Positions 332 through 28,159 of a stretch of DNA of 32,000 nucleotides are shown one piece after another. The stretch is taken from NCBI RefSeq assembly GCF_000015585.1, contig NC_008789.1, positions 1,650,001 through 1,682,000 of the forward strand, given 5' to 3'. Under the pieces are notes generated by a model that did not search any database, had not been told where the DNA came from, and worked only from the letters and a program-made list of their open reading frames with translations. Positions within the stretch are counted from its first letter, which is position 1. Each line of letters starts with the position of its first letter. Origin of the DNA: Halorhodospira halophila SL1 (lineage in GTDB: Bacteria > Pseudomonadota > Gammaproteobacteria > Nitrococcales > Halorhodospiraceae). A program made the translations under genes and the position numbers.

Positions 332-352
332 GGTGTCAGCGTTATTGACGCA
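332..352 (+). promoter_or_regulatory. Candidate enhancer (UAS) dyad for the PilZ-gene sigma-54 promoter
   Basis: GGTGTC-AGCGTTATT-GACGCA fits the YGT-N11-ACR element found upstream of five other sigma-54-type promoters in this window. It ends 76 nt before the -24 GG. Confidence 0.35.
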
Positions 353-426
353 AGCTTTGCACGGAAAACGCGAGGCTTTGCCGGGACACTTGCACACAGG
401 GGCTGAAGGGGATGACGACGACCGCT

Positions 427-442
427 TGGCACGGCACATGCA
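427..442 (+). promoter_or_regulatory. Sigma-54 (-24/-12) promoter upstream of the PilZ gene
   Basis: TGGCACGGCACATGCA matches TGGCACG-N4-TTGCW with correct GG-N10-GC spacing. It lies 108 nt upstream of the GTG at 550. Confidence 0.6.
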
Positions 443-500
443 GACCGGCCCCCGGCAATAGGCATTCGTAAGATCGCCGTTGCCCTGGACGCATAACCAC

Positions 501-545
501 GAACATCCATGAACCTCGGAGAACATCCACGACCCTCGGAGAACT
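501..545 (+). repeat. 20-bp tandem direct repeat (2.25 copies) in the 5' leader of the PilZ gene
   Basis: GAACATCCATGAACCTCGGA (501-520), GAACATCCACGACCCTCGGA (521-540) and GAACT (541-545). The second copy supplies the GGAG Shine-Dalgarno for the GTG at 550. Confidence 0.85.
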
Positions 546-549
546 TAAC

Positions 550-1119
550 GTGAACGCCCTCGACCTGGCAGAGGAGTTGGCCGATTTCTGGCTCCCGGTA
601 CTGGCGAAGCGCTCCTGGGAGGTGCGTGCCGACATGCTGGAGCAGATCCTTGGGCAGTTGGCGGACGACACCCCCGACCCCATGCTCTACCGCCGCCTGG
701 TCGCGTTTTTCCTGGCGACCGCGATCGATCGCCTTGCGGCCGATGAGCCGGTCGCCAGCCAGGCGCAGGCACGGATCTACATCCAGTCGGCCGATCCGAA
801 GCACCGCGCAATGGCCCTGGAACGCTTCCCCGAGGTCCACTCACGCCCTGCGTGGCGCGGCCACCCCCGTAACAACCCCCTGGACCGACGGGCCGCCCCG
901 CGACACCGCCTAACCGCCGAAGCAGGCATCGAAGCCGCCCGTACCAAGATCACGTGTCGGATCCACAATATCTCAAAGTCCGGAGCCCTAATTACCCTAC
1001 ATTTAATGCTTCAACCAAGCGATGAGGTTCACCTGACGCTGCGATCTCGCGACCAGCCGATAAACGGTCAGGTGGCGCGGGTTTCCGATCATGGCTGTGG
1101 CATCCTGTTCTGCGCATAA
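550..1119 (+). CDS. PilZ-domain (c-di-GMP-binding type) protein with an uncharacterised N-terminal domain
   Basis: GTG start with GGAG 8 nt upstream. The C-terminal region carries the two PilZ signatures: RRAAPR (RxxxR) and NISKSG (D/N-x-S-x-x-G). Confidence 0.7.
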   Translation: MNALDLAEELADFWLPVLAKRSWEVRADMLEQILGQLADDTPDPMLYRRLVAFFLATAIDRLAADEPVASQAQARIYIQSADPKHRAMALERFPEVHSRPAWRGHPRNNPLDRRAAPRHRLTAEAGIEAARTKITCRIHNISKSGALITLHLMLQPSDEVHLTLRSRDQPINGQVARVSDHGCGILFCA

Positions 1120-1309
1120 AGGAGACCTCGCGAGAACACCGGCCATCGCTCCGAGACTCGTCGCGAGCGCGAGTCCTTTACCCCACCGATAATATCGTTT
1201 TTACCTTAAATGACCCACCACGCTGCCGTGACGATGCTGTAGCATATTCATCGGTCCGATTCACGTTCAACCCCAAACGTCATGAGGATGAGGACAATTG
1301 GAGTTCGCG

Positions 1310-2032
1310 ATGTCATCCCCCTACTCCCGCTACAAGGTCATCCTGGCGACCGAAGATCAGGCGCGGTGCGCCCATTTCCAGTTACGATACATGGTTTATT
1401 GCGAAAAGAAGCAATATGAATCTTCAAGCCTTTTCCCGGATGGATATGAACGTGACGACCACGACAGTCACGCGCTCCACCTGCTTCTAAAATACACACC
1501 ACCGGGATCCCAGACGAATCGAAACGTGGGCACGATTCGTCTAATAAAAGGCGGAAACAAACCTCTTCCGATCGAGAACATCTCCGACCTGAACAGCAAT
1601 GAATTCACGAATGAATATAGTGGCGAGCTCTCGCGACTCGCTATCCATGAAGTGCCTTCAGGCCACGACACCCTCCCGCTGTTTATCCTCTGCCGTGCTG
1701 CACAGCACCACGCCAGGGGGTGTGGGATATCACGGCTATACTTCCTCGCTCGACCGGCGCTGGCCCGACATCTAACCCGTAACCATTTACCCTTCGAGCA
1801 GGCTGGTTCGCCTTGCTATCACCGCGGCCGCCGCATACCGTACGCGATGGACGTAAATGGCTTTGCTCGGGGGTTAGCGCGGTGGGAAAAGAAACTCATA
1901 AAACAGAAATTAGCCCCATCAAGTAAAACTGAAACCCTCCACGCCTACCAACATCCTAATAGACTTTCTGACATGGTTCCGAACGGCTGCCTGCAGACGA
2001 AGGGAATGCCGGAACCCAAAAAGGCGATATAA
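1310..2032 (+). CDS. PEP-CTERM/exosortase-system-associated acyltransferase (LuxI/FeeM-like N-acyl amino acid synthase fold), copy A
   Basis: FQLRYMVYCEKK...ERDDHD...GTIRLI...ELSRLAIHE matches the pattern of the exosortase-associated acyltransferase family (TIGR03694-like, from memory). ATG 1310 with GGAG 6 nt upstream is preferred over TTG 1298. GC is visibly lower than in neighbouring genes. Confidence 0.7.
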   Translation: MSSPYSRYKVILATEDQARCAHFQLRYMVYCEKKQYESSSLFPDGYERDDHDSHALHLLLKYTPPGSQTNRNVGTIRLIKGGNKPLPIENISDLNSNEFTNEYSGELSRLAIHEVPSGHDTLPLFILCRAAQHHARGCGISRLYFLARPALARHLTRNHLPFEQAGSPCYHRGRRIPYAMDVNGFARGLARWEKKLIKQKLAPSSKTETLHAYQHPNRLSDMVPNGCLQTKGMPEPKKAI

Positions 2033-2088
2033 GGACGACAGCATGGATTACATCGACTCCCGCCAGGCCAACAAGAGAACCAAAACCC

Positions 2089-2937
2089 ATGGATCGAAAC
2101 GAGCTAGTGAATCAATTCCAAGCCTATTTCGAGTATCAAGTAGCGCTGACACCGGAACAGCGCAGGGAGGCGTTCCAGCTCCGCTACGATGTCTACTGCA
2201 TGGAATACGGCTACGAAGACCCGTCGGACCACCCGGATGGGCAAGAGCAGGATGACTTCGACGAGAGCGCGTTAATTTGTACCGTACGGCACACTCAGAC
2301 CGGCCGCTTGGCCGGGTGCTTCCGGATTATCCTACCCGGAATGGAACCGTCTGAGCCTGAAAGGCTTCAAATGGAGGTGGACTGCACCGAAACCCTGTAC
2401 ACAAATGGTCGATTAGACTCGGGGCGGCACCCAAAGAATCTCCGACGCGATTCGGTTTGTGAAGTATCCCGCCTTGCTATCCACACCGACTTCCGCAAAC
2501 GCCCCGGCGAAAAGCAGACACGAATGGGTGCCGTTGACTGGCTTGACCTGCCCGAGGACCAGCGCCTTGCACACCTAAGGACCTTCCCGCTCCTTGGTTC
2601 CAGCCTGTTCTCCGCCGTCGCATACACCTGTGGACGGCTGGGACGAGATCACATCTTCGCGGTAATGGAACCACGTCTGGCTCGTCTACTTACCCGGGAA
2701 GGGATACGCTTCCAGCAGATTGGCGATGTCATGGAATACCATGGCGAGGAGCGCGCAGCATACTACAACTCACTGGAAAAATTCGTTGTGGAGACCGTTG
2801 CCTCCCCGCTGCTGAGACCACTCTATCGGATGGGGGAAAACCAGCTTGCACCAGGCTTGACGGTCTGGCTTGAGCGGCTTCGGAGCCATTCAAACGAGCA
2901 CTCGTGTGGCCGTAGGCCGGACAACAAGGTAAGCTGA
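2089..2937 (+). CDS. PEP-CTERM/exosortase-system-associated acyltransferase (LuxI/FeeM-like), copy B
   Basis: FQLRYDVYCMEYGYE...EQDDFDE...GCFRII...EVSRLAIHTDFRKR is paralogous to copy A. It has a longer insert between the conserved blocks. Confidence 0.75.
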   Translation: MDRNELVNQFQAYFEYQVALTPEQRREAFQLRYDVYCMEYGYEDPSDHPDGQEQDDFDESALICTVRHTQTGRLAGCFRIILPGMEPSEPERLQMEVDCTETLYTNGRLDSGRHPKNLRRDSVCEVSRLAIHTDFRKRPGEKQTRMGAVDWLDLPEDQRLAHLRTFPLLGSSLFSAVAYTCGRLGRDHIFAVMEPRLARLLTREGIRFQQIGDVMEYHGEERAAYYNSLEKFVVETVASPLLRPLYRMGENQLAPGLTVWLERLRSHSNEHSCGRRPDNKVS

Positions 2938-2938
2938 C

Positions 2939-3802: not shown

Positions 3803-3852
3803 TCCATTGTGCTGGTGCGCTGCGCCCCTCCTTCTTTTGCCCCTGATTCCCT

Positions 3853-8564: not shown

Positions 8565-8585
8565 AGCGTCTTTTTTCCTTACAAC
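8565..8585 (+). promoter_or_regulatory. Candidate UAS dyad for PEP-CTERM gene 1
   Basis: AGCGTC-TTTTTTCCT-TACAAC ends 97 nt before the -24 GG at 8682. Confidence 0.35.
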
Positions 8586-8680: not shown

Positions 8681-8696
8681 TGGCCCCAATCGTGCT
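8681..8696 (+). promoter_or_regulatory. Sigma-54-type promoter upstream of PEP-CTERM gene 1
   Basis: TGGCCCCAATCGTGCT has correct GG-N10-GC spacing, but its flanks are weaker than in the other five promoters. It lies 114 nt upstream of ATG 8810. Confidence 0.45.
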
Positions 8697-8809: not shown

Positions 8810-9736
8810 ATGAAAACCCAACCCATGCTAGGCCTTTTCGCGTCCGCGCTGGTACTTGGAATGCTATCAGCGCCCGCCTACGCCGCCCAGTTCACCATTG
8901 ACCCGAGGGACTTTGCCGGTTTTGATGACGGCCCCACCGCCCCTCTTAATTCCCTTGGCTGGGAGCTTCGAACGGCTACGACCCAGTTCGGAACCAGCTC
9001 CGGAGAAAACTGGCTCCCGGACGGGGGGTCACGCTTTTTGGATATCGGATTCGGGCGAATCGACGCTTACAATCCATACGATATCGGGGATGACCAAATC
9101 GCTGGCATCCGCCAGCGGGATATGACCCTCAGATGGGACAACATCGCCGGCACCCTCGGTGCCGATGGGCAGCTAAGCTACGAGAGTGGGACCATTGATT
9201 TCTACTTTGGCGGGGACGGCATTGGATCGGGGGATCTTCGGAGCAGCGATCCTTTCGATACCAACAGTGCTGAGTGGCAGGCCGCCGGCTCCGGCGAGCA
9301 CGTCCTCTCGATGGAACTGAGTAGGGGGGACGCACTCGCCAGACTCATTACTGACGACGATGGCAATCTAGAGGCGATTGACGCCACCCAGTTTGACCTC
9401 TTCTTTGATATTACTTTTGCACGAGAGGGCTTCTGGGCTCTGACCGATAGCCGCCCCTTTGAAGAACTGATCGGGTTGCAACTGATTTCGGCGTTCGGTG
9501 AGGCCGGCGGTGCCACACAGAGAAACACGGTTCTTAACGACGATGAAAACGCTTTCACCGATGCCGATATCGCGCTCTACACCCACTACGCTGGCGTTCG
9601 GCGCGGTTCGCTGGAGTTCCAGGTGCCCGAGCCGAGCACGCTGATGCTCATGGGGGGATCGCTGATCCTGCTCGCCCTCGCCACCGGTGGCTTTCGTCGG
9701 CGTCAAAGCGAGTCCGGAGGACTAGCGGCCTCGTAG
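8810..9736 (+). CDS. PEP-CTERM sorting-domain protein, acidic paralog 1
   Basis: Signal peptide MKTQPMLGLFASALVLGMLSAPAYA. The C-terminus VPEPSTLMLMGGSLILLALATGGFRRRQ is a PEP motif, TM helix and Arg cluster. ATG 8810 (GGAGA 9 nt upstream) is preferred over 8801. Confidence 0.85.
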   Translation: MKTQPMLGLFASALVLGMLSAPAYAAQFTIDPRDFAGFDDGPTAPLNSLGWELRTATTQFGTSSGENWLPDGGSRFLDIGFGRIDAYNPYDIGDDQIAGIRQRDMTLRWDNIAGTLGADGQLSYESGTIDFYFGGDGIGSGDLRSSDPFDTNSAEWQAAGSGEHVLSMELSRGDALARLITDDDGNLEAIDATQFDLFFDITFAREGFWALTDSRPFEELIGLQLISAFGEAGGATQRNTVLNDDENAFTDADIALYTHYAGVRRGSLEFQVPEPSTLMLMGGSLILLALATGGFRRRQSESGGLAAS

Positions 9737-9844: not shown

Positions 9845-12577
9845 TCAATCGCCGAGGTTCGTCAACATTTCCTCTGCGTCCTGGCGCCCCGAAAAGTCCG
9901 CATGCGCCTCCAGCAACTGCTCGAGGATATCACGGGCTTGGCTCACCTGACCGTCAGCACGAAGCGCCCTGGCAAGATTGAGTTGCACGTCCGGATCGCC
10001 GCCGGCAAGGGCCACGGCCTGATCGAGATACTCAACCGCATCGGACGTCCGGTCGTTGCGAAGGAGCACCACGCCGAGGGTGTCCAGCACGGCAGCCTCC
10101 CCCGGGGCCAGGTCATAGGCGCGCCGGGCGTATTCCAGCGCTTGGTCCGGCGCGTCCTCGCGCAGAAGCCACGCCAGGTTATTCAAGGCCAGCGGGTCCT
10201 GCTCACGCTGCTGTAACAGGTGCGTATAAACCTGGATGGCATCCTCGTCGCGACCTGCTTCCAGTAGTGCAGAGCCCAGCACATGGCGCATCTGCGCATC
10301 TGCCGGATTGGCGCTCAGCCAGTCGTTTAGACGATCGATACCGGCATCCAGGTCATCTGCGGCGCGCTTGGCGGTGTAGCCCTCGAGCACCCAGGACCGC
10401 TCCATACGACCTGAGAGGGCGTGTCCATAATGCTCGGCCGCACGCGCAAACCGGCCATCGCGATACGCCAACCAACCCTGATGGGCGTGCACCTCCGGTG
10501 CATCCGGGTTGGCTTCGGCCACCGGTGCGAAAACCTCTTCAGCCTCCTCCCTTTGCCCCTGGCGAGCCAACTGCCGTGACCGGGCATGGGCCGCCGAGTA
10601 GTGGCTGGGATCAGCCGAAAGCGCCGACTCCAAGGCCTCCACCGACCCTTGCTCATCCCCCGCGGCCGCACGCGCCAGCGCGAGCAGGTAATGCAGGTCG
10701 GCGGCATCCGGGTCCAACTCCGTGGCGCGCTCGAGCAGCCTCCGCGCCTCTCGGTCCTCACCGGCCATGCCGTAGATCCGTGCGGCCTCGCCTAGAAACT
10801 GTGCATCCTCCGGACGTTCTTCCAGGGTTTGCTCAAGCACGGACAGCCCCTCGGCTGCGGAATCCATCTGGATCAGCCACTCAGCCAGCCGCATCGCCAC
10901 CCGCGGCTCATCGGGTACTGCTTGATGCACCCCACGAAGCACTTCGATCCCCGCCTCGGCCTCACCGCGGGCGCGCTCGAGGCTGCTAAGATTCATCGCC
11001 AGATCGGCACTGTCCGGAACCGCCTCCAGCCCTTCTCGCAACACACGCCGCGCCCCCGGGCGATCCCCTTGACCCAGGAGGACCGCGGCACGGAGGTTAT
11101 ATCCTACGGGATCCTCCGGGGCCTTATCCTGGGTCCGCTCAGCAGCGACCGCCGCCGCCTCGAAACGCCCAGCCTCGATATAAGCCTGCACCAATGTCAA
11201 ATCCGCTGCACGCAGGGCCCCATCAGCGGACGCCACGGCTTCTAACTCCTCAAGGCCCTTCTCTTCGTCTCCGGCCAGCAGCAGCGCCGTTCCGAGCACC
11301 TCGCGCGTCTCCAGGGCATCGGGTTGCGCGTCCAAAACACGCCTCAGGGTCTGGATACCGGACTCCACATCGCCGGTATCCAGATAGAGCGCACCTAGCC
11401 GATCGCCCAGCTCAGAAACCCATTCCGGCCGTTCCGCGAGCGCCTCACTGAGGACCTCCCGCGCCTCCTCGGGCTGATCTTGCGCCATGTACAACCTTGC
11501 CCGCAAGGTGTAGCTGGTCACAGACCCCGGACCACTCGCGTGGTATCGATTCAGGTGGTGCTCGGCCTGGGCAAGGTTCCCACGCTCAAGCTCCAGCCCT
11601 GCGAGATAGGGGCGCGCCGGGCGATATTCCCGTTGGCGTGCCAGCGCTTCCTCGAACTGCGTTCGGGCTTCATCGGGGGAATCACCCTCGAGTTCTACGA
11701 GCCCCATCAAGAAGTAGCCGCCGGCAAAACCCGGCGCCCCTTCGACCAGTTGCTCGGCGTCAGCTCGGGCCCCTTCAAAGTCTTCTTCGCGAAGCCGAAC
11801 CATCGCTCGCGAGAAACGATCGCTCACATAGTCGGGTCGTAGATCGACGGCTCGATCGAAGGCCTCCCGTGCGCTCTGCCTTTCACCAACGACCTCAGCC
11901 AGGCTGCCGCGAAGCGTCCATGCCGGATAGTAGTCTTCATCGAGCGCCACAGCGGCCTCCAGGTGGCTCGCAGCTTGCGCCCGATCACCGGCAACGAGGG
12001 CACCAAAGGCCTTTGCCAACTCCAGCTCCGGAAGGTCCGCTGCTTCGCTCACCGCGGCCGTCAACAACTCGCTACCCGCTTCGTCATCCCCCCGGTGGTA
12101 GGCCGCCACTGCGCGGTAGGCAAATACCCGGGCCTTGGCCTCCCCCTCAAGCGCTTCGTATTCGAAGTCGACCAGCTCGCCGTGTTGCCTTGTCTCGTGA
12201 TAAAGGCGGGCGAGGGTCGGGGCGTAGCGCTTGGGCTCCGCCCCCTGCTCCAGCGCGCGGGTGAGGTGATTAATCGCTGCGTCGGTATCGCCATCGCCGG
12301 CGTACGCCAACCCGAGCTGACCGCGGGTCTCGGGCGTCTCTACTTTTTGAAGGGCATTCCTATAGTCAAGAACCGCCGCACGGTACTCCCCAGCCTCTAG
12401 TTGCTCCGCCGCGCGCTCCAGATACTCCTCTTCGGACAACCCTTGCCACGCTTCACAACCAACCATCCAAAGCGCGAACACCCCCAGGGCGGCGACGTGC
12501 GGCCACGCCGCCGCCCCCAGCAACGGATTGCGGGGCCGATCGCCCTGTACCCTTCTCAGCCCAGATCCTTTCCTCAC
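9845..12577 (-). CDS. prsT: PEP-CTERM system TPR-repeat lipoprotein
   Basis: 910 aa of TPR repeats throughout, with an N-terminal lipobox LWMVGC. GTG 12577 has AAGGAGGTGA 6 nt upstream. Size and context match PrsT (TIGR02917-like). Confidence 0.85.
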   Translation of the reverse strand: MRKGSGLRRVQGDRPRNPLLGAAAWPHVAALGVFALWMVGCEAWQGLSEEEYLERAAEQLEAGEYRAAVLDYRNALQKVETPETRGQLGLAYAGDGDTDAAINHLTRALEQGAEPKRYAPTLARLYHETRQHGELVDFEYEALEGEAKARVFAYRAVAAYHRGDDEAGSELLTAAVSEAADLPELELAKAFGALVAGDRAQAASHLEAAVALDEDYYPAWTLRGSLAEVVGERQSAREAFDRAVDLRPDYVSDRFSRAMVRLREEDFEGARADAEQLVEGAPGFAGGYFLMGLVELEGDSPDEARTQFEEALARQREYRPARPYLAGLELERGNLAQAEHHLNRYHASGPGSVTSYTLRARLYMAQDQPEEAREVLSEALAERPEWVSELGDRLGALYLDTGDVESGIQTLRRVLDAQPDALETREVLGTALLLAGDEEKGLEELEAVASADGALRAADLTLVQAYIEAGRFEAAAVAAERTQDKAPEDPVGYNLRAAVLLGQGDRPGARRVLREGLEAVPDSADLAMNLSSLERARGEAEAGIEVLRGVHQAVPDEPRVAMRLAEWLIQMDSAAEGLSVLEQTLEERPEDAQFLGEAARIYGMAGEDREARRLLERATELDPDAADLHYLLALARAAAGDEQGSVEALESALSADPSHYSAAHARSRQLARQGQREEAEEVFAPVAEANPDAPEVHAHQGWLAYRDGRFARAAEHYGHALSGRMERSWVLEGYTAKRAADDLDAGIDRLNDWLSANPADAQMRHVLGSALLEAGRDEDAIQVYTHLLQQREQDPLALNNLAWLLREDAPDQALEYARRAYDLAPGEAAVLDTLGVVLLRNDRTSDAVEYLDQAVALAGGDPDVQLNLARALRADGQVSQARDILEQLLEAHADFSGRQDAEEMLTNLGD

Positions 12578-12742: not shown

Positions 12743-12763
12743 GACGTTGAGTTTCTTTACACC
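12743..12763 (+). promoter_or_regulatory. Candidate UAS dyad for PEP-CTERM gene 2
   Basis: GACGTT-GAGTTTCTT-TACACC ends 96 nt before the -24 GG at 12859. Confidence 0.4.
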
Positions 12764-12857
12764 CATGGCTGCCCACTCGCCCACCGGCATCCGGCGCCGA
12801 AGACCAGGCTAAATCTGCGGGCCGCACGCGCCGCCCTCGCCCACCGCGCACCCCCAC

Positions 12858-12873
12858 TGGCACGCCCGATGCA
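12858..12873 (+). promoter_or_regulatory. Sigma-54 promoter upstream of PEP-CTERM gene 2
   Basis: TGGCACGCCCGATGCA lies 80 nt upstream of ATG 12953. It is identical to the 16-mer at 14395. Confidence 0.65.
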
Positions 12874-12952: not shown

Positions 12953-13984
12953 ATGAGGACCCAACCGATTCTAAGTCTCGCGACATCTTCGGCGGTGATG
13001 CTCAGCGTGCTCGCCACGCCTGCCCATGCGACTCAGTTCACCATCGACCCCAGCGAATTCGACGGTTTTGATGGCTACGAGGGGGGAGCAACCGCCCCCC
13101 TTGACTCGCTCAGCTGGGAACTACGAACCGCAACCCAGCAATTCGGGCCTAGCGAAAACGAAAACTGGGTCCCGGATCGAGGGTCTTCGTTTATCGACCG
13201 CGGCGTCGGACGCATCCAAGACTACAACCCATTCGATACCGGCGAGGATGTGGAACTGGGCAGTATCGGTGCAAGGGACATGACCCTCAGATGGAATAAT
13301 ATTAAAGGCCGGACCGGCGAGGCGCTCGAGACCCAGGAACTACTGGACGAGGCCGATAATGACCTGCCTGTTGATGAGGTAGGTAATGGCCGGTCTCTGA
13401 TCTATGACAGCGGGACCATCGAGTTCTTCTTTGCCGGAGACGACGATCAGGAGCTGCGAGACCTGGAGACCCCCGAGCCGTGGCACACGGGCGACGATAT
13501 CTGGAACCAGGCTGGTAGTGGCAAAAAAGTCCTCGAGTTGAAACTGACAGGCGGCAGCGCACTGGGTGGTTTCGAGCTCGACGACGACGGCAACCTCCAG
13601 GGGATTGAAGCGACCCAGTTTGACCTCGATTTTGAGGTCACTGATGCGCTGGACGGCTTTTGGGCCACCGCAGATGGTCGTGCCTTTGAAGAACTCATCG
13701 GGTTACAACTAATCACGGCGTTCGGTGAGGCCGGTGGCGCTACAGAAAGAAGCACGGTCATCAACGAGGACGCGTACAGCGATAACGGTGTTGCAGTTGC
13801 AGAAGATTCCGAGGTCGAGCTTTACACCCACTACGCCGGGGGCCGGGAAGGCAAAATGAACTTCCAGGTACCCGAGCCGAGCACGCTGGTGCTCATGGGC
13901 GGGTCGCTCGTGCTGATCGCCCTCGCCACCACCGGTGGCCTGCGCCGGCGGCGAGGCGAGAGCGGAACGCCCGCTTCAGCTTAG
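12953..13984 (+). CDS. PEP-CTERM sorting-domain protein, acidic paralog 2
   Basis: AGGAGA RBS and signal peptide MRTQPILSLATSSAVMLSVLATPAHA. C-terminus VPEPSTLVLMGGSLVLIALATTGGLRRRR. Collinear with paralogs 1 and 3 but carries an extra acidic insert. Confidence 0.85.
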   Translation: MRTQPILSLATSSAVMLSVLATPAHATQFTIDPSEFDGFDGYEGGATAPLDSLSWELRTATQQFGPSENENWVPDRGSSFIDRGVGRIQDYNPFDTGEDVELGSIGARDMTLRWNNIKGRTGEALETQELLDEADNDLPVDEVGNGRSLIYDSGTIEFFFAGDDDQELRDLETPEPWHTGDDIWNQAGSGKKVLELKLTGGSALGGFELDDDGNLQGIEATQFDLDFEVTDALDGFWATADGRAFEELIGLQLITAFGEAGGATERSTVINEDAYSDNGVAVAEDSEVELYTHYAGGREGKMNFQVPEPSTLVLMGGSLVLIALATTGGLRRRRGESGTPASA

Positions 13985-14278: not shown

Positions 14279-14299
14279 GCCGTCGACTTTCTTTACGCC
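14279..14299 (+). promoter_or_regulatory. Candidate UAS dyad for PEP-CTERM gene 3
   Basis: GCCGTC-GACTTTCTT-TACGCC ends 97 nt before the -24 GG at 14396. Confidence 0.4.
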
Positions 14300-14394
14300 C
14301 CTCCCCGGCCAAGCCCGCCTGCAGGGCACCCGCACCCGGGGCCATCCCCCTCAAGGGGCCGCACACGCGGCCCTCGCTCACCACCTGCCACCAC

Positions 14395-14410
14395 TGGCAC
14401 GCCCGATGCA
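14395..14410 (+). promoter_or_regulatory. Sigma-54 promoter upstream of PEP-CTERM gene 3
   Basis: TGGCACGCCCGATGCA lies 76 nt upstream of ATG 14486. Confidence 0.65.
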
Positions 14411-14485: not shown

Positions 14486-15481
14486 ATGAAGATCCAACTA
14501 ATGAAGAAGCAATCGATGCTAGGCCTCGCGGCATCCTCAGCGGTGGTGCTGGGCCTGGTCGCCGCGCCCGCCCACGGCACGGACTTTACGGTCGACCCCG
14601 ATGGGGCGGGGTTCGACGGTTACGACGAGGGCCCGACCGAACCCCTCAACTCCCTCGGCTGGGAACTGCGAACGGCCACCCAGCAGTTCGGTACCAGCGG
14701 GGTGGGCATCCCGGTCGAGGATCCGAACGATGATGGTCAGGGTGGGACTTACATCCCCGACGTCGGATCGACTTTCGTGGACCGCGGATTCGGACGCATC
14801 GACGCCTACAATCCGTTCGATATCGGTGACGACGAACTCCGAGGGCTTGGTCAACGGGATATGACCTTGAGGTGGGACGACATCACCGGGACTATCGGTG
14901 AAGATGGCGAGCTGGACTACGACAGCGGAACCATCGATTTCTACTTTGGCGGGGACGGCCAAATCGGGTCGGACGCCCTTCGGAGCAGCGAAGATTTCGA
15001 CACGACCAGCGATGAGTGGCAATCCGCTGGCACCGGCGAGAACGTCCTTTCCATGGAGCTGACAGACGGCGATGCACTCGCCAGGGTCATAACCGACGAG
15101 GACGGCAACCTCACGGGGATTGACGCCACCCAGTTCGACCTCTTCTTTGACGTTACCGACGCCGATGAAGATTTCTGGGCGATAGCGGGTGGAGAGTCTT
15201 TCGCAGAGCTACTCGCGATGGAGATGGGGCTCTCGGTTTTCGGTGAGGCCGGCGGTGCCATACAGAGAAACACGGTTCTTAACGACGATGAAAACGCTTT
15301 CACCGATCCCGATATCGAGCTCTACACCCACTACGCGGGGGGCCGGCGGGGCTCGATGGAGTTCGAGGTGCCCGAGCCGAGCACACTGATGCTCATGGGC
15401 GGGTCGCTCGTGCTGGTCGCGCTCGCCGCCACCGGTAGCCTGCGCCGGCGTCAAAACGAGACGGGGCAGCTGGCTGCCTAA
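14486..15481 (+). CDS. PEP-CTERM sorting-domain protein, acidic paralog 3
   Basis: ATG 14486 follows GGAAGGAGA, the same leader as paralog 2; the ORF-track start at 14432 lies upstream of this RBS. Signal peptide MKIQLMKKQSMLGLAASSAVVLGLVAAPAHG. C-terminus VPEPSTLMLMGGSLVLVALAATGSLRRRQ. Confidence 0.85.
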   Translation: MKIQLMKKQSMLGLAASSAVVLGLVAAPAHGTDFTVDPDGAGFDGYDEGPTEPLNSLGWELRTATQQFGTSGVGIPVEDPNDDGQGGTYIPDVGSTFVDRGFGRIDAYNPFDIGDDELRGLGQRDMTLRWDDITGTIGEDGELDYDSGTIDFYFGGDGQIGSDALRSSEDFDTTSDEWQSAGTGENVLSMELTDGDALARVITDEDGNLTGIDATQFDLFFDVTDADEDFWAIAGGESFAELLAMEMGLSVFGEAGGAIQRNTVLNDDENAFTDPDIELYTHYAGGRRGSMEFEVPEPSTLMLMGGSLVLVALAATGSLRRRQNETGQLAA

Positions 15482-15629: not shown

Positions 15630-16979
<1,350 letters not shown>

Positions 16980-16998
16980 CGTCTTTATGCCTCCCTCA

Positions 16999-19065
16999 TC
17001 ATCCCGCCGCGGCCAACGACGATTCCGCGCTGCCGCGAGCAAGTAGCTGGACCGTAAAGCGTGTACCGGCTCCGGGCCTGCTAGAGACCTCGATGCGCCC
17101 CCCTAAACTGGCAATGTACTCCCGGGCTTCATACACACCGATACCCATGCCGGCGTTGCCTTTGGTCGTCTGGAACGGTCGGAACAACCGCTCGCGCAGG
17201 AACGCCTCATCCATACCCTGGCCGGTGTCCTCAATCACAATATAGCCCCATTCTTCCCGCTGGCTGAGGCGGAGCCGAATCCAGCCATCCGCAGGTGTGG
17301 CGTCCTGGGCGTTCCGCACCAGGTGAGCAACGACATTGGCCAGCCGCTCCTGATCGGCAATCACCTGGACCTCCTGCTCCACGGTCAACTCCGGCTGCGG
17401 CTCACCGTGCAAGGCCTGCAAGACTTGGCGCAGAACTGCCCCCAACTCAACCCGCTGTGCCGGCGCCGCCTGCTCCGGTTGGGCATTGCGCAGTTGCGCC
17501 AGGGTCCGATCGAGGCGTTCACGGGCGTGGCCAACGGTTCGGAAGGCGTTCTCGAGAAACTCCGGGTTGTCGCGGTGGCGCTCGGCGTTGGCGAGCACCA
17601 GCGATAATTGCCCGGAGACGTTCTTGAGATCGTGCACCAGGAAGGCGGCGAGGCGGTGGAAGGTCTCGAACTGCCGTGCCTCCGCCAGCGCCTCGCCCAC
17701 CTGCGTCAGCGCCACGTAGACCGCCAGCTGCCGCCCAGCGATCTTGAGCAAATCCCGATCCTCCCACTCAATGGGCCGCGGGGCCCGCGGCTGGGCAAGG
17801 ACCACGAAGCCGGTCAACTCCGAACCTTGGAGCAGCGGCACCACCAGCCAATAGCGGGGATTCGCTAACAACCACTCCGGCAACGCCAGCTCGGGATAGG
17901 CGGCAGGGTCATCCCGGTATTCATCGACATCGATCACCCATCCACTCTCGAACAGGTATTGCGCCAGCGAGCCCGTCTGCGGCTCTGGGGGGTGGTTGGG
18001 CTCGCCGAGGTTGAGCACCCCCTCTAGGTCGTAATCACCCTGGGGATTCTGAACCCAAAGCACCCCCCCGGGACTGTCTACCAGCTCGGCGACGGCGTAA
18101 ATAGCCCGCTGACGAAAAGGCAGTTCGTCGTGCTCCTTGGAGAGGGTCGCGGTAAAACGCAGCCATTCGTCGTGGTAGTCATACTTGTAATTGAAGAAGT
18201 GCTTATTGATGAGTACCCGCAACCGCGCCTGGAACGACCCCGAAAAGAGCACAAGAACCAGGAGCAGCCCCGCCCCGAAGAGCAGCGCTGACTGCAACAA
18301 CGCACCCCAGTCACCACCGAACTCGCGCAAGAGGTAGCTAGCCGCCCCCACCGCAAGCAGATACAAGCCAGCGCCGGTCAATGCTGCGGTGTGGAAGACC
18401 AGGTGCCTCGAAACGGTCGGTGCCAGGCCCCGCGGGAGCTGGCGACGCAGAGAGACCGCCACTAGCGGCACGACCAAGGCGTTGATCAGGCCCCGTGCCT
18501 GCGCGGTGGTCGCCTCCACTGCCTGGAAGAGCACCAGATCAGCGAGCACGAACAGGTCGAAGGCGAACAGCCCACCTACACCCAAGCAGAGCAGTTTGAT
18601 CCCCCAGCGCTCCTGCTCCGGGGTGTTCCGGTAGACTTGCTCAACCAACACCAACCCGGCGATCGTCATCAGCAATAGCGCCAGGCCGTAAACGCCATCC
18701 AAACCGAGTTCGGGCCCGACAACCGGGACCAACATCAGCAGCAGAAAACCGCTCAGGACGATGGCCCAAAGCCGTAGTGTGCGCTTCCCACGCTGTGTAT
18801 GCCCGTGCATGCGGTGCAGGATCGCCAGCAAGACCACGAACCACCCCGCGGCCCGCATAAGCTCCCAGCTACCGCTGGCAAGGATCAACTCGCGGGCGTC
18901 GTCGTGCAGCGGGAGACTGCTCAAGTCGGCCGCCCACCCCGCAGTCAGCAGCGAGGCCACCACCACCGACAGGGCGCCGGGCCGATCCCGCCACAGTGTG
19001 AGTGTCAGAACAGCCAGCACCAGGAACGCCGCCAAAGCAGCGGCAAAACTCGCAGCCGATAGCAT
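16999..19065 (-). CDS. prsK: PEP-CTERM system sensor histidine kinase
   Basis: 688 aa with a multi-TM N-terminal half and a GAF-like middle region. H-box FLVHDLKNV, N-box LVRNAQDA, G-boxes DTGQGM and GMGIGVY. GGAGG lies 4 nt upstream of ATG 19065. Confidence 0.85.
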   Translation of the reverse strand: MLSAASFAAALAAFLVLAVLTLTLWRDRPGALSVVVASLLTAGWAADLSSLPLHDDARELILASGSWELMRAAGWFVVLLAILHRMHGHTQRGKRTLRLWAIVLSGFLLLMLVPVVGPELGLDGVYGLALLLMTIAGLVLVEQVYRNTPEQERWGIKLLCLGVGGLFAFDLFVLADLVLFQAVEATTAQARGLINALVVPLVAVSLRRQLPRGLAPTVSRHLVFHTAALTGAGLYLLAVGAASYLLREFGGDWGALLQSALLFGAGLLLVLVLFSGSFQARLRVLINKHFFNYKYDYHDEWLRFTATLSKEHDELPFRQRAIYAVAELVDSPGGVLWVQNPQGDYDLEGVLNLGEPNHPPEPQTGSLAQYLFESGWVIDVDEYRDDPAAYPELALPEWLLANPRYWLVVPLLQGSELTGFVVLAQPRAPRPIEWEDRDLLKIAGRQLAVYVALTQVGEALAEARQFETFHRLAAFLVHDLKNVSGQLSLVLANAERHRDNPEFLENAFRTVGHARERLDRTLAQLRNAQPEQAAPAQRVELGAVLRQVLQALHGEPQPELTVEQEVQVIADQERLANVVAHLVRNAQDATPADGWIRLRLSQREEWGYIVIEDTGQGMDEAFLRERLFRPFQTTKGNAGMGIGVYEAREYIASLGGRIEVSSRPGAGTRFTVQLLARGSAESSLAAAG

Positions 19066-22356: not shown

Positions 22357-22363
22357 ATCGACA

Positions 22364-22410: not shown

Positions 22411-22415
22411 CTCGG

Positions 22416-23903: not shown

Positions 23904-23910
23904 AGGGGCA

Positions 23911-25086
23911 TCATCCGTGCTGTTGTGGATCCATCTGCGCCGCCTCGGCATCCAGATCCCGGGGTGCGCGGAAGGCCTTGTAGAACAGGTGACGAACCAG
24001 TAGCCAAGGCGGCATCTTCAGCCAGTGGCCACGGACAAGCATCAGGCCTCGCGCCAGGGCATCGGCTCTCGGCGTCGTGGAGAGATGGCCGTTCAGCGCG
24101 TGCTCGAACGCAGGCCGCACAATACGCTTGCCCAAAAACCCGGGGGTGTGGTGACTCAGGCGCTCCACTGCCGCCTGCGGGACTGGGGTACCGAAGCGCC
24201 GCCGGCAGCACCAGACGGCCGGCTCCACCAGCCAGAGCAGCCGCATGGCCTCGGCCTCGTCGAGCAGCGCCTCCCAGAACCGGTCGCCGTGCTGCTGATG
24301 GAAGTGCTCAAGCAGGCTATGGATGTCGTAAAGATCCCGCAATCCGCGGTCCCAATCGGTTTCCGAGAACAGGTGGACGATGGCGTGGAGTACCAAGTGC
24401 CGGGGCGCCGGCAGCCGCAGCCAGTGCAGCCCCGGAGCGGGGGCGGCGTGCTCAAAGATGGGGGCCGGATCGACGACCACGGCGAAGGTCTCGGGCAAGA
24501 TGTTATGGTGCAGATCCAGCGTGGTCCCGCGTTTGCGGTGTTGCAGAGGCGGGAGCTCGTGCATCCACTGCCGGTAGTAACGCTGATCGTAGGCGTCGTG
24601 GTGGGTCCCCGCCCACCCTTCATAGAACAGGGCCGACTCGACTCGCTCGACCTCCGCCTTTTGTGCCAACAGATCGATATCCGCCACGATCCTCCCGGCC
24701 GCATTCGGCAATCCCGCCAGCAGGTAGGCGCCCCCCTTCAAGGCGACCGGAGCAGTGAACCGCCGCAACACCCCGCGGTCGAGCTGTTGCAACTCCCACC
24801 GAAGCGCCGCGGCGTTGGTCTCGGCAGTTGCTGCCGCACCCCACAGATGCCCGGCCACCCACTCCGGCAACTGCCCTTCGACCCCACAGCTCACCGCACG
24901 GTGCCACAACGCCCCGAGCAAGAGGTTCTCACGCCCCACGGCCAGGATCCCCGTCCACAGCGACTCCGGAAAGCCGGCCAGGGTCTCAGGCCAGGCCAGG
25001 CCTTGTCCGAGCGCGTGAGCAGGATTAAGCGGCCAGCGCGTCAAAGCTCTCGACGGCCTCCTCCAGCCGGCTGTAACCGAAGTCAT
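23911..25086 (-). CDS. Uncharacterised nucleotidyltransferase-fold protein (PF14907-like)
   Basis: PVALKGGAYLL...GRIVADIDLLAQKAEVERVESALFYEGW...TTLDLHHNILP matches the 'uncharacterised nucleotidyltransferase' pattern. The start is uncertain: ATG 25086, TTG 25044 or ATG 25167. All three overlap the 3' end of the kinase gene. Confidence 0.6.
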   Translation of the reverse strand: MTSVTAGWRRPSRALTRWPLNPAHALGQGLAWPETLAGFPESLWTGILAVGRENLLLGALWHRAVSCGVEGQLPEWVAGHLWGAAATAETNAAALRWELQQLDRGVLRRFTAPVALKGGAYLLAGLPNAAGRIVADIDLLAQKAEVERVESALFYEGWAGTHHDAYDQRYYRQWMHELPPLQHRKRGTTLDLHHNILPETFAVVVDPAPIFEHAAPAPGLHWLRLPAPRHLVLHAIVHLFSETDWDRGLRDLYDIHSLLEHFHQQHGDRFWEALLDEAEAMRLLWLVEPAVWCCRRRFGTPVPQAAVERLSHHTPGFLGKRIVRPAFEHALNGHLSTTPRADALARGLMLVRGHWLKMPPWLLVRHLFYKAFRAPRDLDAEAAQMDPQQHG

Positions 25087-25945
25087 AGCCCGGTGCCTGC
25101 TCCACAAGGTCCACCGTTCTGTGGAAGGCACGCCTTCCGAGGGCGGCATAGTTGAACGATTGGGCAATCAGCCCCATCAGCGTATCCGCCGGGGAGCGCT
25201 CTCGCCAGCTCACGGGCCCGTAGGGACGGTAGCGAGGGAACACCACCCAGCCCGGCGGGGTGGGCTCGCTCGCCCGCGCAACACTCGCCGCTGGCGGCCG
25301 CATATGCGCGACTGAACCCTTGCGAGTGTCGCAGCACGGCGTGCTAATCACCGCCTCGGGCGCAAAGCGCTGGATCACCTCGATGGAGGCGTTCTTCAGA
25401 CTAACCGGCCTTGCCAACCCGTAGAGCAGCGGCTGAGGGCCGGCCAGCTCGACTGCGGCCACCTCGTCGCTCAGCAACCGCCAACCGCGGTTGGCCAGCG
25501 CGGCACACAGGGTGCTCTTCCCCGCTTCCGGCGGCGCCGGCAAGATCACCGCGCGGCCATTCTTTTCCAGGCAGGCCGCGTGAAAGAGCAGGAAATGCTT
25601 GGTCTGCATCCCCACGCACCAGTTCAGGCCCCACTCAAGCATCGGGAACGCCTGATTGCGGGGGAGCGGCTTGAAAATGCGTTTAGCGTCCGCGTAGAAG
25701 AGCGCCTGGGGCCTGTAGTAGCGGCGCACCCCGCGGCCGGACACGACCTCACAGTGAAAATCACAGCCGTGCTCTGACTCAAGAACCGGGTGATCGGCGT
25801 AGAGCTGCCAGATCCCTTGCGCCACAGAGGCTAAACGGCTGCGGAGGGCAAAGCGGAAGGGACCGGTCTGAACGGCAAGCTCCCCGCTGGATAGACGATC
25901 CACGACGCTGCTGTAGCCCAGCCCAGCGATCGTCGTCACGTGCAC
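25025..25945 (-). CDS. HPr-kinase-related P-loop protein ('HprK-related kinase A' type)
   Basis: AVILPAPPEAGKSTLCAALANRGWRLLSDE resembles the HprK/P C-terminal domain P-loop region. The GTG start at 25945 overlaps the upstream stop by 10 nt. Confidence 0.65.
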   Translation of the reverse strand: MHVTTIAGLGYSSVVDRLSSGELAVQTGPFRFALRSRLASVAQGIWQLYADHPVLESEHGCDFHCEVVSGRGVRRYYRPQALFYADAKRIFKPLPRNQAFPMLEWGLNWCVGMQTKHFLLFHAACLEKNGRAVILPAPPEAGKSTLCAALANRGWRLLSDEVAAVELAGPQPLLYGLARPVSLKNASIEVIQRFAPEAVISTPCCDTRKGSVAHMRPPAASVARASEPTPPGWVVFPRYRPYGPVSWRERSPADTLMGLIAQSFNYAALGRRAFHRTVDLVEQAPGYDFGYSRLEEAVESFDALAA

Positions 25946-26283
25946 TCCCGGATTAGACGCGCATCCATGAGCGGCTGCAGGGCCCAGCCCAGAAGATCCT
26001 CCCGAGAACCTGGCTGCGTGCCCGCCTCCACGAGCCCACCATCGTCCTCAGCCACCGCCTTAAGCAACTCCCGCTCCGTCACCGAGGTACGCTCGCTGAT
26101 CCGGGCCAGGATCTCTGTCGAGAGGCGGGGCATGGCGTAGGTGGAGCCTGAGCCGCGGTGGTAGACGAAACCATACGCCCCGACAAGGCGCCAAGCGAGA
26201 TCGTTGGAGCGCAATGACCAGCGCCGCGAACTCCTCTCCCCAGGCTGAGGCGACTCCTGTATACGGGGTTCAGAGTCGCTCAT
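25936..26283 (-). CDS. PqqD-family protein (RiPP-recognition-element fold)
   Basis: 115 aa. GFVYHRGSGSTYAMPRLSTEILARISE...TERELLKAV...LLGWALQPLMDARLI follows the PqqD pattern. Its ATG directly abuts the TAA of the upstream gene, with GAGG 5 nt upstream. Confidence 0.6.
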   Translation of the reverse strand: MSDSEPRIQESPQPGERSSRRWSLRSNDLAWRLVGAYGFVYHRGSGSTYAMPRLSTEILARISERTSVTERELLKAVAEDDGGLVEAGTQPGSREDLLGWALQPLMDARLIRECT

Positions 26284-26964
26284 TTAAGCCTCATGAAGGA
26301 AAAAAGGATCGGCCGTTATATTCTCGAGAAACAGGGCGACCTCCTCGGGCCCCAAGGGCACCTCACCGGTGCTCGTTTCGTAATTCTCTCCGTTAAGGGC
26401 CGTTCGAACTAGATCCTTAATCTCCTCTGCGGTGGGGCTGCCGTTATAAAAACCGGCCTCACTATTCAGCAACGCCGCCGTACCGTAGTAAATCACTGTA
26501 CGATCCGTTCGGGAGACAAGAGACCCAGTTGATTGGTAGACAGCATACGGGCCGCCGTTGGCATTCGACCAGACCGCATACTTCAGACGAAGCTCCTGAC
26601 TAAGATCTTCATCTTCGTAGTATACGTTTCCCGAGTACTCAAAGGCTGCCACAAATAATCTTTCCTGGTCCTCTTCACTCATCGCACCGTTGTTCGATCC
26701 CCAGTAACCGGGAGAACGGCCACCACAGTCTTTAGCGTCGCCGTGCTGAGACCCCCCAGACACCCAGCCCGATGGATGACAGTTCCCACCTTCGATCGAG
26801 CCGGCCCGAAGCGGATTGCTATGGAAGGCCAGCAGTACCGGCACGCTGCCCAGGGCCGCTTGCCCGAAGCGCCGGCGCGACATCCCCCGGCTCGGGGGGT
26901 GTTTGCCTTGCCCTTCCGCGATTTCGTGCGGCTCGGGTGCTTGGTTCCGCTCGTGTTCCGTCAT
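26284..26964 (-). CDS. Hypothetical secreted protein with twin-arginine (Tat) signal
   Basis: SRRRFGQAALGSVPVLLAF Tat motif after a 27-aa hydrophilic N-extension. GAGGGG lies 8 nt upstream of ATG 26964; ATG 26883 is an alternative start. I recognise no family, and GC is lower than in the surroundings. Confidence 0.6.
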   Translation of the reverse strand: MTEHERNQAPEPHEIAEGQGKHPPSRGMSRRRFGQAALGSVPVLLAFHSNPLRAGSIEGGNCHPSGWVSGGSQHGDAKDCGGRSPGYWGSNNGAMSEEDQERLFVAAFEYSGNVYYEDEDLSQELRLKYAVWSNANGGPYAVYQSTGSLVSRTDRTVIYYGTAALLNSEAGFYNGSPTAEEIKDLVRTALNGENYETSTGEVPLGPEEVALFLENITADPFFLHEA

Positions 26965-27024
26965 CGCGGCAACCCCTCAAGATTGTGTTCAATGTCTAGT
27001 CGATTTGCTGCCTAGCAGAACGCT

Positions 27025-27041
27025 TAGCAAGTTTCGCGCCG
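27025..27041 (-). promoter_or_regulatory. Sigma-54-type promoter of the Tat-protein/PqqD/HprK-like/NTase operon
   Basis: The minus strand reads CGGCGCGAAACTTGCTA: GG-N10-GC spacing with a TTGCT -12 box. It lies 61 nt upstream of ATG 26964. Confidence 0.5.
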
Positions 27042-27124
27042 ATAGGCAGGCTTCACCCCAGCCCCTATCCCGCTCAGGGCGTTGAACGAGGCGGTGACAA
27101 TCCGTCACTGCCACGGTCTCCGCC

Positions 27125-27145
27125 GGTGTAAAGGCTCTCTACACC
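27125..27145 (-). promoter_or_regulatory. Candidate UAS, perfect dyad GGTGTA-N9-TACACC
   Basis: The minus strand reads GGTGTA-GAGAGCCTT-TACACC; the extended palindrome CCGGTGTA...TACACCGG spans 27123-27147. It ends 85 nt before the -24 GG at 27040. Confidence 0.45.
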
Positions 27146-27159
27146 GGCCCCACCCGGAC

Positions 27160-27939
27160 TCACTCACTCGACCACCCCCGGGAACTCTCCCTCACCCGCC
27201 CCTGAACCAGGAAGGAGTGGCAGAAGCGCCCTTCCGCGCCGGGCAAGATGCGCATTGCGCTGCGAACGAGGCCACCTTCGGCCCATAGCTGCAGTCGCCC
27301 GAGACGCCCCGGTAACAAAAGCAGCCAAGCGACCTGCCTTACCTCCAGCCCCAGCGCCTCCAGCTCGCCGGTGACGGTAGTATAGTCGTCATACCGCAGG
27401 TGTGCCGGCCGCCCAGCCCTCTTGCGACGCCATTCACCGAGGGCGTTGGGCAGACACCGGGCGTTGAGCGCATCCACCCAGATTTCCCCGCCAGGACGCA
27501 CCACCCGCGCCATTTCTGCCAGCGCCGGCCGAGCCTCGGGCAACGCCTGGAGGACCCCCAGGCACAGAACCCCATCGAACCGGTCATCGCCAAACGGCAG
27601 TCGTTGCGCATCCCCAGCCACCCAAGGAATATCGACGGATGTTCGCTGCCGGGCCTTGTGCAGCGACGGTTGCGAGTAGTCGAGGCCCACCGCCTTGCGC
27701 CCGCCCTCGTGGAGGTAGCGCGTGTAGGTTCCGGCCCCACAGCCAAGATCCAGCCAATGTCCGGGCGGCGGCTCGACGTTCTCCCAGAGTTGGCGGAACT
27801 GCCGGAATCGCGAGGCCAAACCCGTCGGCGTCCACCCGGCAATCCCGGCATCGTCCTCCAGCGTCGCCCCCCGCTGTACGAAACGGCGCTGCCAGCGCCG
27901 GGCGAAGTCCGAATCGGTCACGAGCCACTCCCTGTTCAT
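27160..27939 (-). CDS. Class I SAM-dependent methyltransferase
   Basis: HWLDLGCGAGTYTRYL is motif I. RFDGVLCLGVLQ and VRPGGEIWV are the post-I motifs. ATG 27939 is preferred over the upstream ATG at 28026. Confidence 0.7.
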   Translation of the reverse strand: MNREWLVTDSDFARRWQRRFVQRGATLEDDAGIAGWTPTGLASRFRQFRQLWENVEPPPGHWLDLGCGAGTYTRYLHEGGRKAVGLDYSQPSLHKARQRTSVDIPWVAGDAQRLPFGDDRFDGVLCLGVLQALPEARPALAEMARVVRPGGEIWVDALNARCLPNALGEWRRKRAGRPAHLRYDDYTTVTGELEALGLEVRQVAWLLLLPGRLGRLQLWAEGGLVRSAMRILPGAEGRFCHSFLVQGRVRESSRGWSSE

Positions 27940-28036
27940 CTCTCCCGCCCTGCAAACGGCCACCGTGCACGCCCTCTGGCCAGCGACGCCCCACAGCGCG
28001 AGTCCCGAAGGATAGCAGCGCGACATCGGGATTGAA

Positions 28037-28057
28037 GGCGTCGAGATCGTTTACACT
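28037..28057 (+). promoter_or_regulatory. Candidate UAS dyad for PEP-CTERM gene 4
   Basis: GGCGTC-GAGATCGTT-TACACT ends 88 nt before the -24 GG at 28145. This upstream region is not paralogous to those of pep1-3. Confidence 0.4.
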
Positions 28058-28143
28058 CAACCCGCCGCCACCTCTATCACGAGGCGCACCGCACTCTCCG
28101 TACCTCCCTGTACCGCCCACAGGTGCTGGCCTATCCCCCCTGT

Positions 28144-28159
28144 CGGCATAGCCCTTGCT
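28144..28159 (+). promoter_or_regulatory. Sigma-54-type promoter upstream of PEP-CTERM gene 4
   Basis: CGGCATAGCCCTTGCT is GGCAT-N5-TTGCT. It lies 39 nt upstream of ATG 28198. Confidence 0.55.

Follow-up and report, generated by a model that had tools for sequence, protein, structure and literature searches.

The window analysed in this study is a stretch of 32,000 nucleotides of Halorhodospira halophila SL1 (contig NC_008789.1, positions 1,650,001 to 1,682,000), and it represents a classical XrtA/PEP-CTERM exopolysaccharide locus. Four genes for PEP-CTERM proteins (pep1 to pep4) lie here together with genes for a TIGR03013 sugar transferase, a PEP-CTERM-system export protein, GalE, GDP-mannose enzymes, two exosortase-associated acyltransferases and a ThiF-like protein. 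The response regulator PrsR, the histidine kinase PrsK and the lipoprotein PrsT are all encoded within the window (Table 1), and no sigma-54 activator other than PrsR was detected in it, as an earlier note on this DNA had claimed. The closest PrsR proteins among GTDB representative genomes showed 62-63% identity. Rfam and tRNA scans of the whole window gave no matches.

The earlier note described six transcription units, each preceded by a sigma-54-type -24/-12 element and, further upstream, by a 21-bp dyad, and took them as a map of the PrsR regulon. In the present study, the six dyads were found very probably to be PEP-CTERM boxes, that is, directional 17-nt upstream activator sequences of sigma-54 promoters that PrsR is predicted to bind and to serve by DNA looping. 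The regulon at this locus would comprise the four PEP-CTERM matrix proteins and an operon for a Tat-signal protein, a PqqD-related protein, an HprK-related kinase and a nucleotidyltransferase, with a PilZ unit as the probable sixth member. The core of this finding is the rediscovery of a prediction made in 2006; relative to the prior work that was found, it adds the placement of the HprK-related kinase A (HprK-rel-A) cassette under the same control, figures for how the box is phased and oriented, and a candidate PilZ target.

Table 1. Predicted PrsR boxes, sigma-54 elements and genes of the window.
Feature	Coordinates	Strand	Evidence
PrsR box (predicted) of PilZ unit, variant TGTCA-N6-TTGACG	332..352	plus	exact string; 10.9 bits, rank 6, weakest
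Sigma-54 -24/-12 element of PilZ unit, TGGCACGGCACATGCA	427..442	plus	crude score 6/7; 108 nt before GTG 550
PilZ-domain protein gene	550..1119	plus	Pfam PilZ, E = 2.5e-9
PrsR box (predicted) of pep1	8565..8585	plus	exact string; 11.0 bits, rank 5
Sigma-54 -24/-12 element of pep1	8681..8696	plus	crude score 5/7
pep1, PEP-CTERM protein gene	8810..9736	plus	C-terminal VPEPSTLMLMGG...RRRQ
prsT, TPR lipoprotein of PrsK/PrsR system	9845..12577	minus	TIGR02917, 484 bits, above cut-off
PrsR box (predicted) of pep2	12743..12763	plus	exact string; 16.9 bits, rank 2
Sigma-54 -24/-12 element of pep2	12858..12873	plus	crude score 6/7
pep2, PEP-CTERM protein gene	12953..13984	plus	annotation and C-terminal motif check
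PrsR box (predicted) of pep3	14279..14299	plus	exact string; 16.4 bits, rank 3
Sigma-54 -24/-12 element of pep3	14395..14410	plus	crude score 6/7
pep3, PEP-CTERM protein gene	14486..15481	plus	TIGR02595 PEP_CTERM domain
prsR, sigma-54-dependent response regulator, presumed box binder	15630..17042	minus	TIGR02915, 702 bits (cut-off 502.6)
prsK, cognate histidine kinase	16999..19065	minus	TIGR02916, 727 bits, above cut-off
Operon Tat-protein/PqqD_rel_X/HprK-rel-A/NTP_transf_5	23911..26964	minus	NCBIfam/Pfam matches and gene order
NTP_transf_5 nucleotidyltransferase	23911-25167	minus	PF14907
HprK-related kinase A	25025-25945	minus	TIGR04352
PqqD_rel_X	25936-26283	minus	TIGR04353
Tat-signal protein gene	26284-26964	minus	first operon gene; no family model matched
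Sigma-54 -24/-12 element of Tat-protein operon, CGGCGCGAAACTTGCT	27026..27041	minus	crude score 5/7
PrsR box (predicted) of Tat-protein/HprK-rel-A operon	27125..27145	minus	exact string; 13.9 bits, rank 4
PrsR box (predicted) of pep4	28037..28057	plus	exact string; 18.2 bits, rank 1
Sigma-54 -24/-12 element of pep4	28144..28159	plus	crude score 6/7
pep4, PEP-CTERM protein gene	28198..28908	plus	Pfam PEP-CTERM

The PEP-CTERM box and the six elements of the window

According to Haft, Paulsen, Ward and Selengut (BMC Biol 4:29, 2006; PMC1569441), PEP-CTERM genes of Proteobacteria mostly stand alone as transcription units and have long upstream regions. These hold a 17-nt motif 1 that ends in TTTACA and is sometimes repeated, then a spacer of 32-92 nt (mean 62.8) and a 17-nt motif 2 that fits the -24 GG/-12 GC pattern of sigma-54. 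Both motifs were present before 99 of 167 proteobacterial PEP-CTERM genes, and a few sites lay before genes of other kinds. In its phylogenetic profile the box DNA matched PrsR, PrsK and PrsT exactly, and motif 1 was predicted to be the PrsR site. Neither helical phasing nor a fixed orientation of the box, nor the HprK-rel-A cassette as a target, is mentioned in the accessible text of that paper. The 21-mer of the earlier note corresponds by its sequence to this motif 1 (TGTCG-N6-TTTACA) with two flanking bases on each side. Thus, the interpretation as a PrsR regulon is correct in its core but not new, the published precedent having gone unrecognised there. The box is an imperfect TGT-N11-ACA dyad located approximately 7 to 9 helical turns upstream of the -24/-12 element.

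External boxes were collected from 58 proteobacterial loci with a PrsR orthologue by a search for TTACA 30-130 nt upstream of sigma-54-like boxes, in which the left half of the motif was not used. All non-noise hits carried TGTC(G) at a constant offset, giving nnTGTCG-N6-TTTACAnn, and in other genera the genes that followed the recovered boxes encoded PEP-CTERM proteins or belonged to HprK-rel-A operons. A matrix of 13 sites from these loci, none of them from the window, had five of the six window sites as its best-scoring positions among approximately 64,000 position-strands (14.2-19.8 bits; the next best match scored 12.0). With a 23-nt matrix of 51 sites, which also took in validated metagenomic sites, again none from the window and each with a downstream sigma-54 box, all six sites occupied ranks 1 to 6 (scores in Table 1), and first-order Markov simulations gave an expectation of 0.57 hits of at least 10 bits per window. 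An iteratively expanded second matrix took in approximately 15 related sphingomonad sites, which lacked sigma-54 boxes and were phylogenetically non-independent, and it therefore served as a sensitivity check only. A sigma-54 matrix built from cassette promoters was biased to AT-rich spacers and under-scored the pep1-3 and PilZ boxes, and it was not used as evidence.

All six 21-mers and all six sigma-54-like 16-mers were found exactly as described, and each was the sole copy apart from the declared pep2/pep3 duplicate. The invariance of G4, T5, A17 and C18 also held, the same four bases being the most conserved in the 51-site family (95-97% each). The downstream elements all show GG-N10-GC with 5-6 of 7 flanking consensus bases, and they are not convincing when taken alone; jointly with the upstream box the proposal stood, as a sigma-54-like box lies downstream on the same strand at each of the six sites at a chance rate of 0.022 per 60 nt. 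Loose motifs might co-occur by chance in GC-rich DNA, where GT-N11-AC and GG-N10-GC are individually very common (640 matches to GG-N10-GC and 24 to YGGC-N8-TGCW in the window). The probability of such an origin is negligible, however, given the position of the sites at the top of the external matrices, the low joint expectation for the sigma-54 box and the conservation of the box architecture in dozens of other genomes; chance is refuted by the matrix ranks together with the metagenomic conservation of the cassette and the 10.8-nt phasing described below.

As in the published class, the window boxes comprise a 17-nt element ending in TTTACA or a variant of it, a spacer and a -24 GG/-12 GC element in genomes with PrsR, PrsK and PrsT, and those of pep1 to pep4 lie in non-coding DNA before PEP-CTERM genes. 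They are degenerate by comparison: CGTC replaces TGTC in four of the six (8565, 12743, 14279 and 28037), and TTTACA is exact in three (12743, 28037 and 27145 on the minus strand), the others reading TTTACG, CTTACA and TTGACG. Moreover, the spacers lie at the long end of the published range, and two boxes precede units that do not encode PEP-CTERM proteins. Among the 51 external boxes TGTC occurs in 92% and C at box position 3 in 7%; CGTC boxes were found outside the window in loci L058, L125, L127 and L149. The CGTC of the four window boxes suggests a lineage-specific drift of the PrsR half-site.

The earlier note counted the upstream regions of pep1, pep2 and pep3 as roughly one observation owing to paralogy. 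This caution does not apply to pep1, whose upstream region gave no alignment with those of pep2 and pep3, so that pep1 is a nearly independent observation. In the spacers of pep2 and pep3, which otherwise diverge, a GC-rich palindrome, GGGCCGCACrCGCsGCCC, is among the few conserved blocks and lies between the box and the -24 element (12819-12836 and 14356-14373). A divergent methyltransferase gene has its annotated ATG at 28026 (minus strand), and the pep4 box starts just 11 nt upstream of it; either this ATG is mis-called, or PrsR occupancy would overlap both the translation and the transcription signals of the methyltransferase.

Helical phasing, orientation and the presumed activator

The distances from the dyad end to the -24 GG given in the earlier note (76, 97, 96, 97, 88 and 85 nt) are correct by direct reading. 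With the last A of the box and the first G of the -24 element as end points, which adds 2 nt, the window spacers are 78, 99, 98, 99, 90 and 87 nt, within the 53-107 range of the 51 external sites. The helical phasing proposed from these distances is not significant in the window alone (p ~0.06-0.11 with pep1-3 counted once). However, the external spacers cluster at 53-57, 63-67, 74-79, 83-90, 94-99 and 107 nt with a best period of 10.8 nt (R = 0.61, Rayleigh p ~4e-9), and the period persisted when related lineages were collapsed to 30 sites (simulated p = 5e-5). Relative to the mean phase of the family, the window spacers are displaced by +0.5 to +3.5 nt, and each falls inside a family class; thus the phasing claim was right but needed outside data. 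The face-of-helix periodicity of generic enhancer-binding-protein sites was accordingly seen across the 51 sites.

The orientation of the box was constrained as well. Of 78 strong boxes, 51 have a sigma-54 box on the TTTACA side alone and one has it on the TGTCG side alone, while one is flanked on both sides and 25 on neither. The PrsR box is therefore directional in the sense of a bias among natural sites, and with 51 sites against one it departs from the orientation independence of generic enhancer sites. The phasing and the fixed orientation predict less activation after a +5 bp insertion or an inversion of the box. What the sequences show directly is the architecture of the box, how significant the pattern is statistically, and how it is conserved, phased and oriented from genome to genome.

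Many of the 25 strong boxes that lack a sigma-54 box are paired sites beside prsK in sphingomonads. In the sphingomonad PrsR loci L039-L044, L047, L048 and L054-L056, very high-scoring boxes with no downstream sigma-54 box lie approximately 2-3.6 kb upstream of prsR, beside the start of prsK, and in several of these loci they form divergent pairs approximately 7 bp apart. These boxes may serve PrsR autoregulation or the use of a non-sigma-54 promoter (right half TTGACA).

Sites of NifA and NtrC are bound by Fis-type helix-turn-helix activators approximately 70-100 bp upstream of -24/-12 promoters and depend on the face of the helix. The window boxes have the TGT...ACA dyad, the upstream position and the helix-face dependence in common with them. 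The likeness to the NifA site TGT-N10-ACA that the earlier note had drawn goes no further than analogy, since all six sites, like the 51-site family, have a spacing of N11. Unlike NifA and NtrC sites, the PrsR box has asymmetric flanks (TGTCG versus TTTACA) and a fixed orientation, and one box per promoter was detected rather than a tandem. PrsR itself scored 344 bits against the NifA family model (cut-off 529) and likewise stayed below the NtrC family cut-off, so that neither the sites nor the activator fit the NifA class.

The proposed mechanism would begin with the membrane kinase PrsK, which would sense an envelope or matrix signal and phosphorylate the NtrC-type PrsR. Phosphorylated PrsR would then bind the box through its Fis-type helix-turn-helix, oligomerise and, with the DNA between them looped, touch the closed sigma-54 holoenzyme from the correct helical face, after which ATP hydrolysis would open the promoter. 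We infer PrsR as the binder, and the looping, from the profile reported by Haft et al., the genetics of Zoogloea and Aquincola and the general behaviour of enhancer-binding proteins. Experiments in Zoogloea and Aquincola have shown PEP-CTERM genes to depend on RpoN and PrsK/PrsR, the Zoogloea genetics being summarised in PMC9012009. In Aquincola, a sigma-54-type transcription start of pepA was mapped at TGGCAC...CTGCTT, with a "previously predicted enhancer" upstream (PMC9850573). The pepA promoters of Zoogloea resiniphila and Aquincola tertiaricarbonis, with a PEP-CTERM gene beside prsT, a mapped sigma-54 promoter and a predicted upstream enhancer, are of the type found in the window, and the Roseateles loci L030 and L051 have the same promoter type with a box 87-99 nt upstream. 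Those studies were experimental and concerned a single gene, whereas the window offers six promoters in one locus, known from sequence.

The boxes could also be real enhancer sites of another sigma-54 activator encoded elsewhere in the genome. Bacteria usually encode many such activators and the window covers only 32 kb; moreover, among the metagenomic HprK-rel-A loci that carry a box, the majority lack a prsR gene within 5 kb, and the cited papers on the PEP-CTERM box and the pepA promoters (PMC1569441, PMC9850573, PMC9012009) report no biochemical binding of PrsR to the box. This alternative is nevertheless quite improbable, because the published profile of the box matches PrsR, PrsK and PrsT exactly, every genome locus with boxes was retrieved through a PrsR orthologue, and the Zoogloea genetics tie PrsK/PrsR to the transcription of PEP-CTERM genes.

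Several observations weigh against the assignment of the six sites to PrsR. The window boxes are weaker than is typical of the family (10.9-18.2 bits versus mostly 16-28), and four of the six carry the family-rare C at box position 3. A search of the six box-to-promoter spacers for the integration host factor (IHF) consensus gave no match. Many strong boxes of sphingomonad loci have no sigma-54 box, so that the role of the box is not confined to upstream activation of sigma-54 promoters. The PilZ site, discussed below, adds further points of this kind.

The locus is also of practical interest. In activated-sludge and environmental Proteobacteria, flocs and biofilms form under the control of PEP-CTERM proteins and PrsK/PrsR, whose cis-element is so far a prediction; the locus provides six natural variants of it within 32 kb, from strong to weak and including one perfect palindrome, as material for reporter and footprinting work. 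The mechanism is ordinary, and the current understanding of sigma-54 activation is not overturned.

The Tat-protein/HprK-rel-A operon

The claim that the Tat-protein/HprK-rel-A operon is a target of the same regulator was strongly supported by comparison with other genomes. An HprK-rel-A homologue followed by a nucleotidyltransferase gene was found in eight genome loci (L013, L018, L019, L021, L022, L031, L036 and L037), and all eight operons open with a Tat-signal protein gene followed by a PqqD-like gene. A strong box with a sigma-54 element lies directly before the first cassette gene in five of the eight, L021 being a weak sixth. A metagenome scan with an HprK-rel-A alignment yielded 80 loci, of which 67 have a nucleotidyltransferase gene after the kinase gene and 41 had at least 1.5 kb of upstream sequence and were assessed. 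In 29 of these 41 loci a box of 13.6-27.5 bits was present on the same strand, 890-1340 nt upstream of the kinase gene, and in 27 of the 29 a sigma-54-like box followed 63-107 nt downstream on the box-to-GG scale; the reverse-strand control mostly remained below 10 bits. The first open reading frame after the box encoded a Tat-signal protein in nearly every metagenomic cassette, and the other boxes on those contigs precede PEP-CTERM genes. This conservation across genomes places the HprK-rel-A cassette firmly in the same regulon. Such membership appears to be unreported in the searchable literature, where a search turned up no mention of HprK-related kinase A, TIGR04352 or TIGR04353.

A 27-nt palindrome at 27122-27148, whose DNA arms match perfectly over 9 bp, encloses the operon box of the window, in agreement with the perfect inverted repeat claimed for this site. 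The palindrome begins 12 nt past the stop codon of the methyltransferase gene, in the gap before the operon, and its arms reach beyond what the box consensus needs; as RNA it folds into a 12-bp stem, the structure of 27100-27175 having -31 kcal/mol (z = -2.8). It might therefore be primarily a hairpin at the end of the methyltransferase transcript, that is, a terminator or 3' stabiliser, rather than an activator site. We consider this improbable. There is no U-tract at the palindrome, and a terminator scan made no call there; moreover, the site scored 13.9-18.1 bits with the box matrices and has the right orientation and phase to its sigma-54 box. The orthologous cassettes of many genomes carry non-palindromic boxes at the same position, which makes the activator site the primary reading. 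The two roles are mutually compatible, and the palindrome may have a secondary role as a transcript-end hairpin.

The cassette resembles the tailoring sets of lasso-peptide clusters (paeninodin, pseudomycoidin), in which a PqqD-like B1 protein, an HPr-kinase homologue and a nucleotidyltransferase represent the same three protein types. In those clusters the kinase phosphorylates the C-terminal Ser of the precursor and the nucleotidyltransferase adds a hexose to the phosphate (PMC8498205). The window operon differs in having no lasso cyclase or protease, and its candidate substrate would be a Tat-signal protein of approximately 190-245 aa instead of a short precursor, the chemistry being drawn by analogy only. 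With some preference over other readings, we suggest that the PrsK/PrsR-sigma-54 regulon, whose boxes are directional and keep a fixed helical face, has in this operon a second, widely conserved arm, which would add phosphate, and perhaps sugar, to a secreted protein induced together with the matrix proteins of flocs or biofilms, and that the PilZ protein, as a c-di-GMP receptor, is maybe a further member. Co-expression with matrix proteins, with the Tat-exported protein as a likely modification substrate, provides a first functional lead for the HprK-rel-A cassette.

The Tat-signal proteins that open the cassettes matched no Pfam or NCBIfam family. They measure approximately 190-245 aa in the genome loci and in many of L081-L160. 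The beta-proteobacterial proteins have ...TLASRPxLAWHCKSPS in common after the twin-arginine motif, and a C-x2-PG[FY]W-x-NN motif is common to the protein of the window and those of L021 and L037. Some cassette loci (L154) have two Tat-signal genes, each with its own box.

The PilZ unit

The identification of the gene at 550 as a PilZ gene was confirmed by Pfam (Table 1), and this gene is possibly the first of a unit with the two exosortase-associated acyltransferase genes and the ThiF-like gene (1298-3802). Its proposal as a PrsR target received moderate support, as its box ranks sixth of approximately 64,000 with the 51-site matrix, at a chance of ~5e-4 per 60-nt single-strand span, and has the orientation of the family. 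The spacing of 78 nt falls in the family class of 74-79, and only six sigma-54 boxes in the window reach 6/7, that at 427 among them. The PilZ box nevertheless is the weakest of the six predicted PrsR boxes and shows three variants at once that are rare in the family (TGTCA, TTGAC and a terminal G). Right halves of the TTGACA/TTGACG type precede PEP-CTERM genes in Roseateles and Rubrivivax loci (L030, L036) and also occur in L054.

The score of the PilZ box depends on the matrix: it lies below 6 bits with the 13-site matrix, the cleanest, and reaches rank 8 with the second matrix and rank 6 (10.9 bits) with the 51-site matrix. A word-index search detected no homologue of the PilZ protein, and the site consequently lacks comparative support. 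The same PilZ protein is encoded on three other contigs (GCA_016583685.1 and two Logan assemblies), whose upstream DNA shows 100% identity and thus allows no footprint, and no boxes were found upstream of the acyltransferase and ThiF homologues in L005, L015, L027 and L117. The same facts feed a different explanation, namely that another activator serves the PilZ promoter, which would itself be a genuine sigma-54 promoter, and that the dyad at 332-352 is a near-match by chance. We regard this as possible though the less probable of the two, in view of the rank, the orientation, the spacing class and the similar right halves elsewhere, and a functional PrsR box, as predicted from its sequence, is fairly probable.

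The PilZ box lies within a divergent intergenic region, since a divergent minus-strand gene with its start at approximately 229 (MGQMEQVVQEVLHQLRATWRRRWWILP...) extends past the window edge (1-229); as called on the full contig, it encodes a 511-aa Wzz/GNVR chain-length determinant. The 5' leader of the PilZ gene is filled by a 20-nt tandem repeat at 501-544 (2.2 copies, 91% match, GAACATCCAYGAMCCTCGGA), the last copy of which provides a GGAG Shine-Dalgarno sequence 8 nt before the GTG at 550. The repeated GGA motifs of this leader could form a translational control site of the CsrA/RsmA type.

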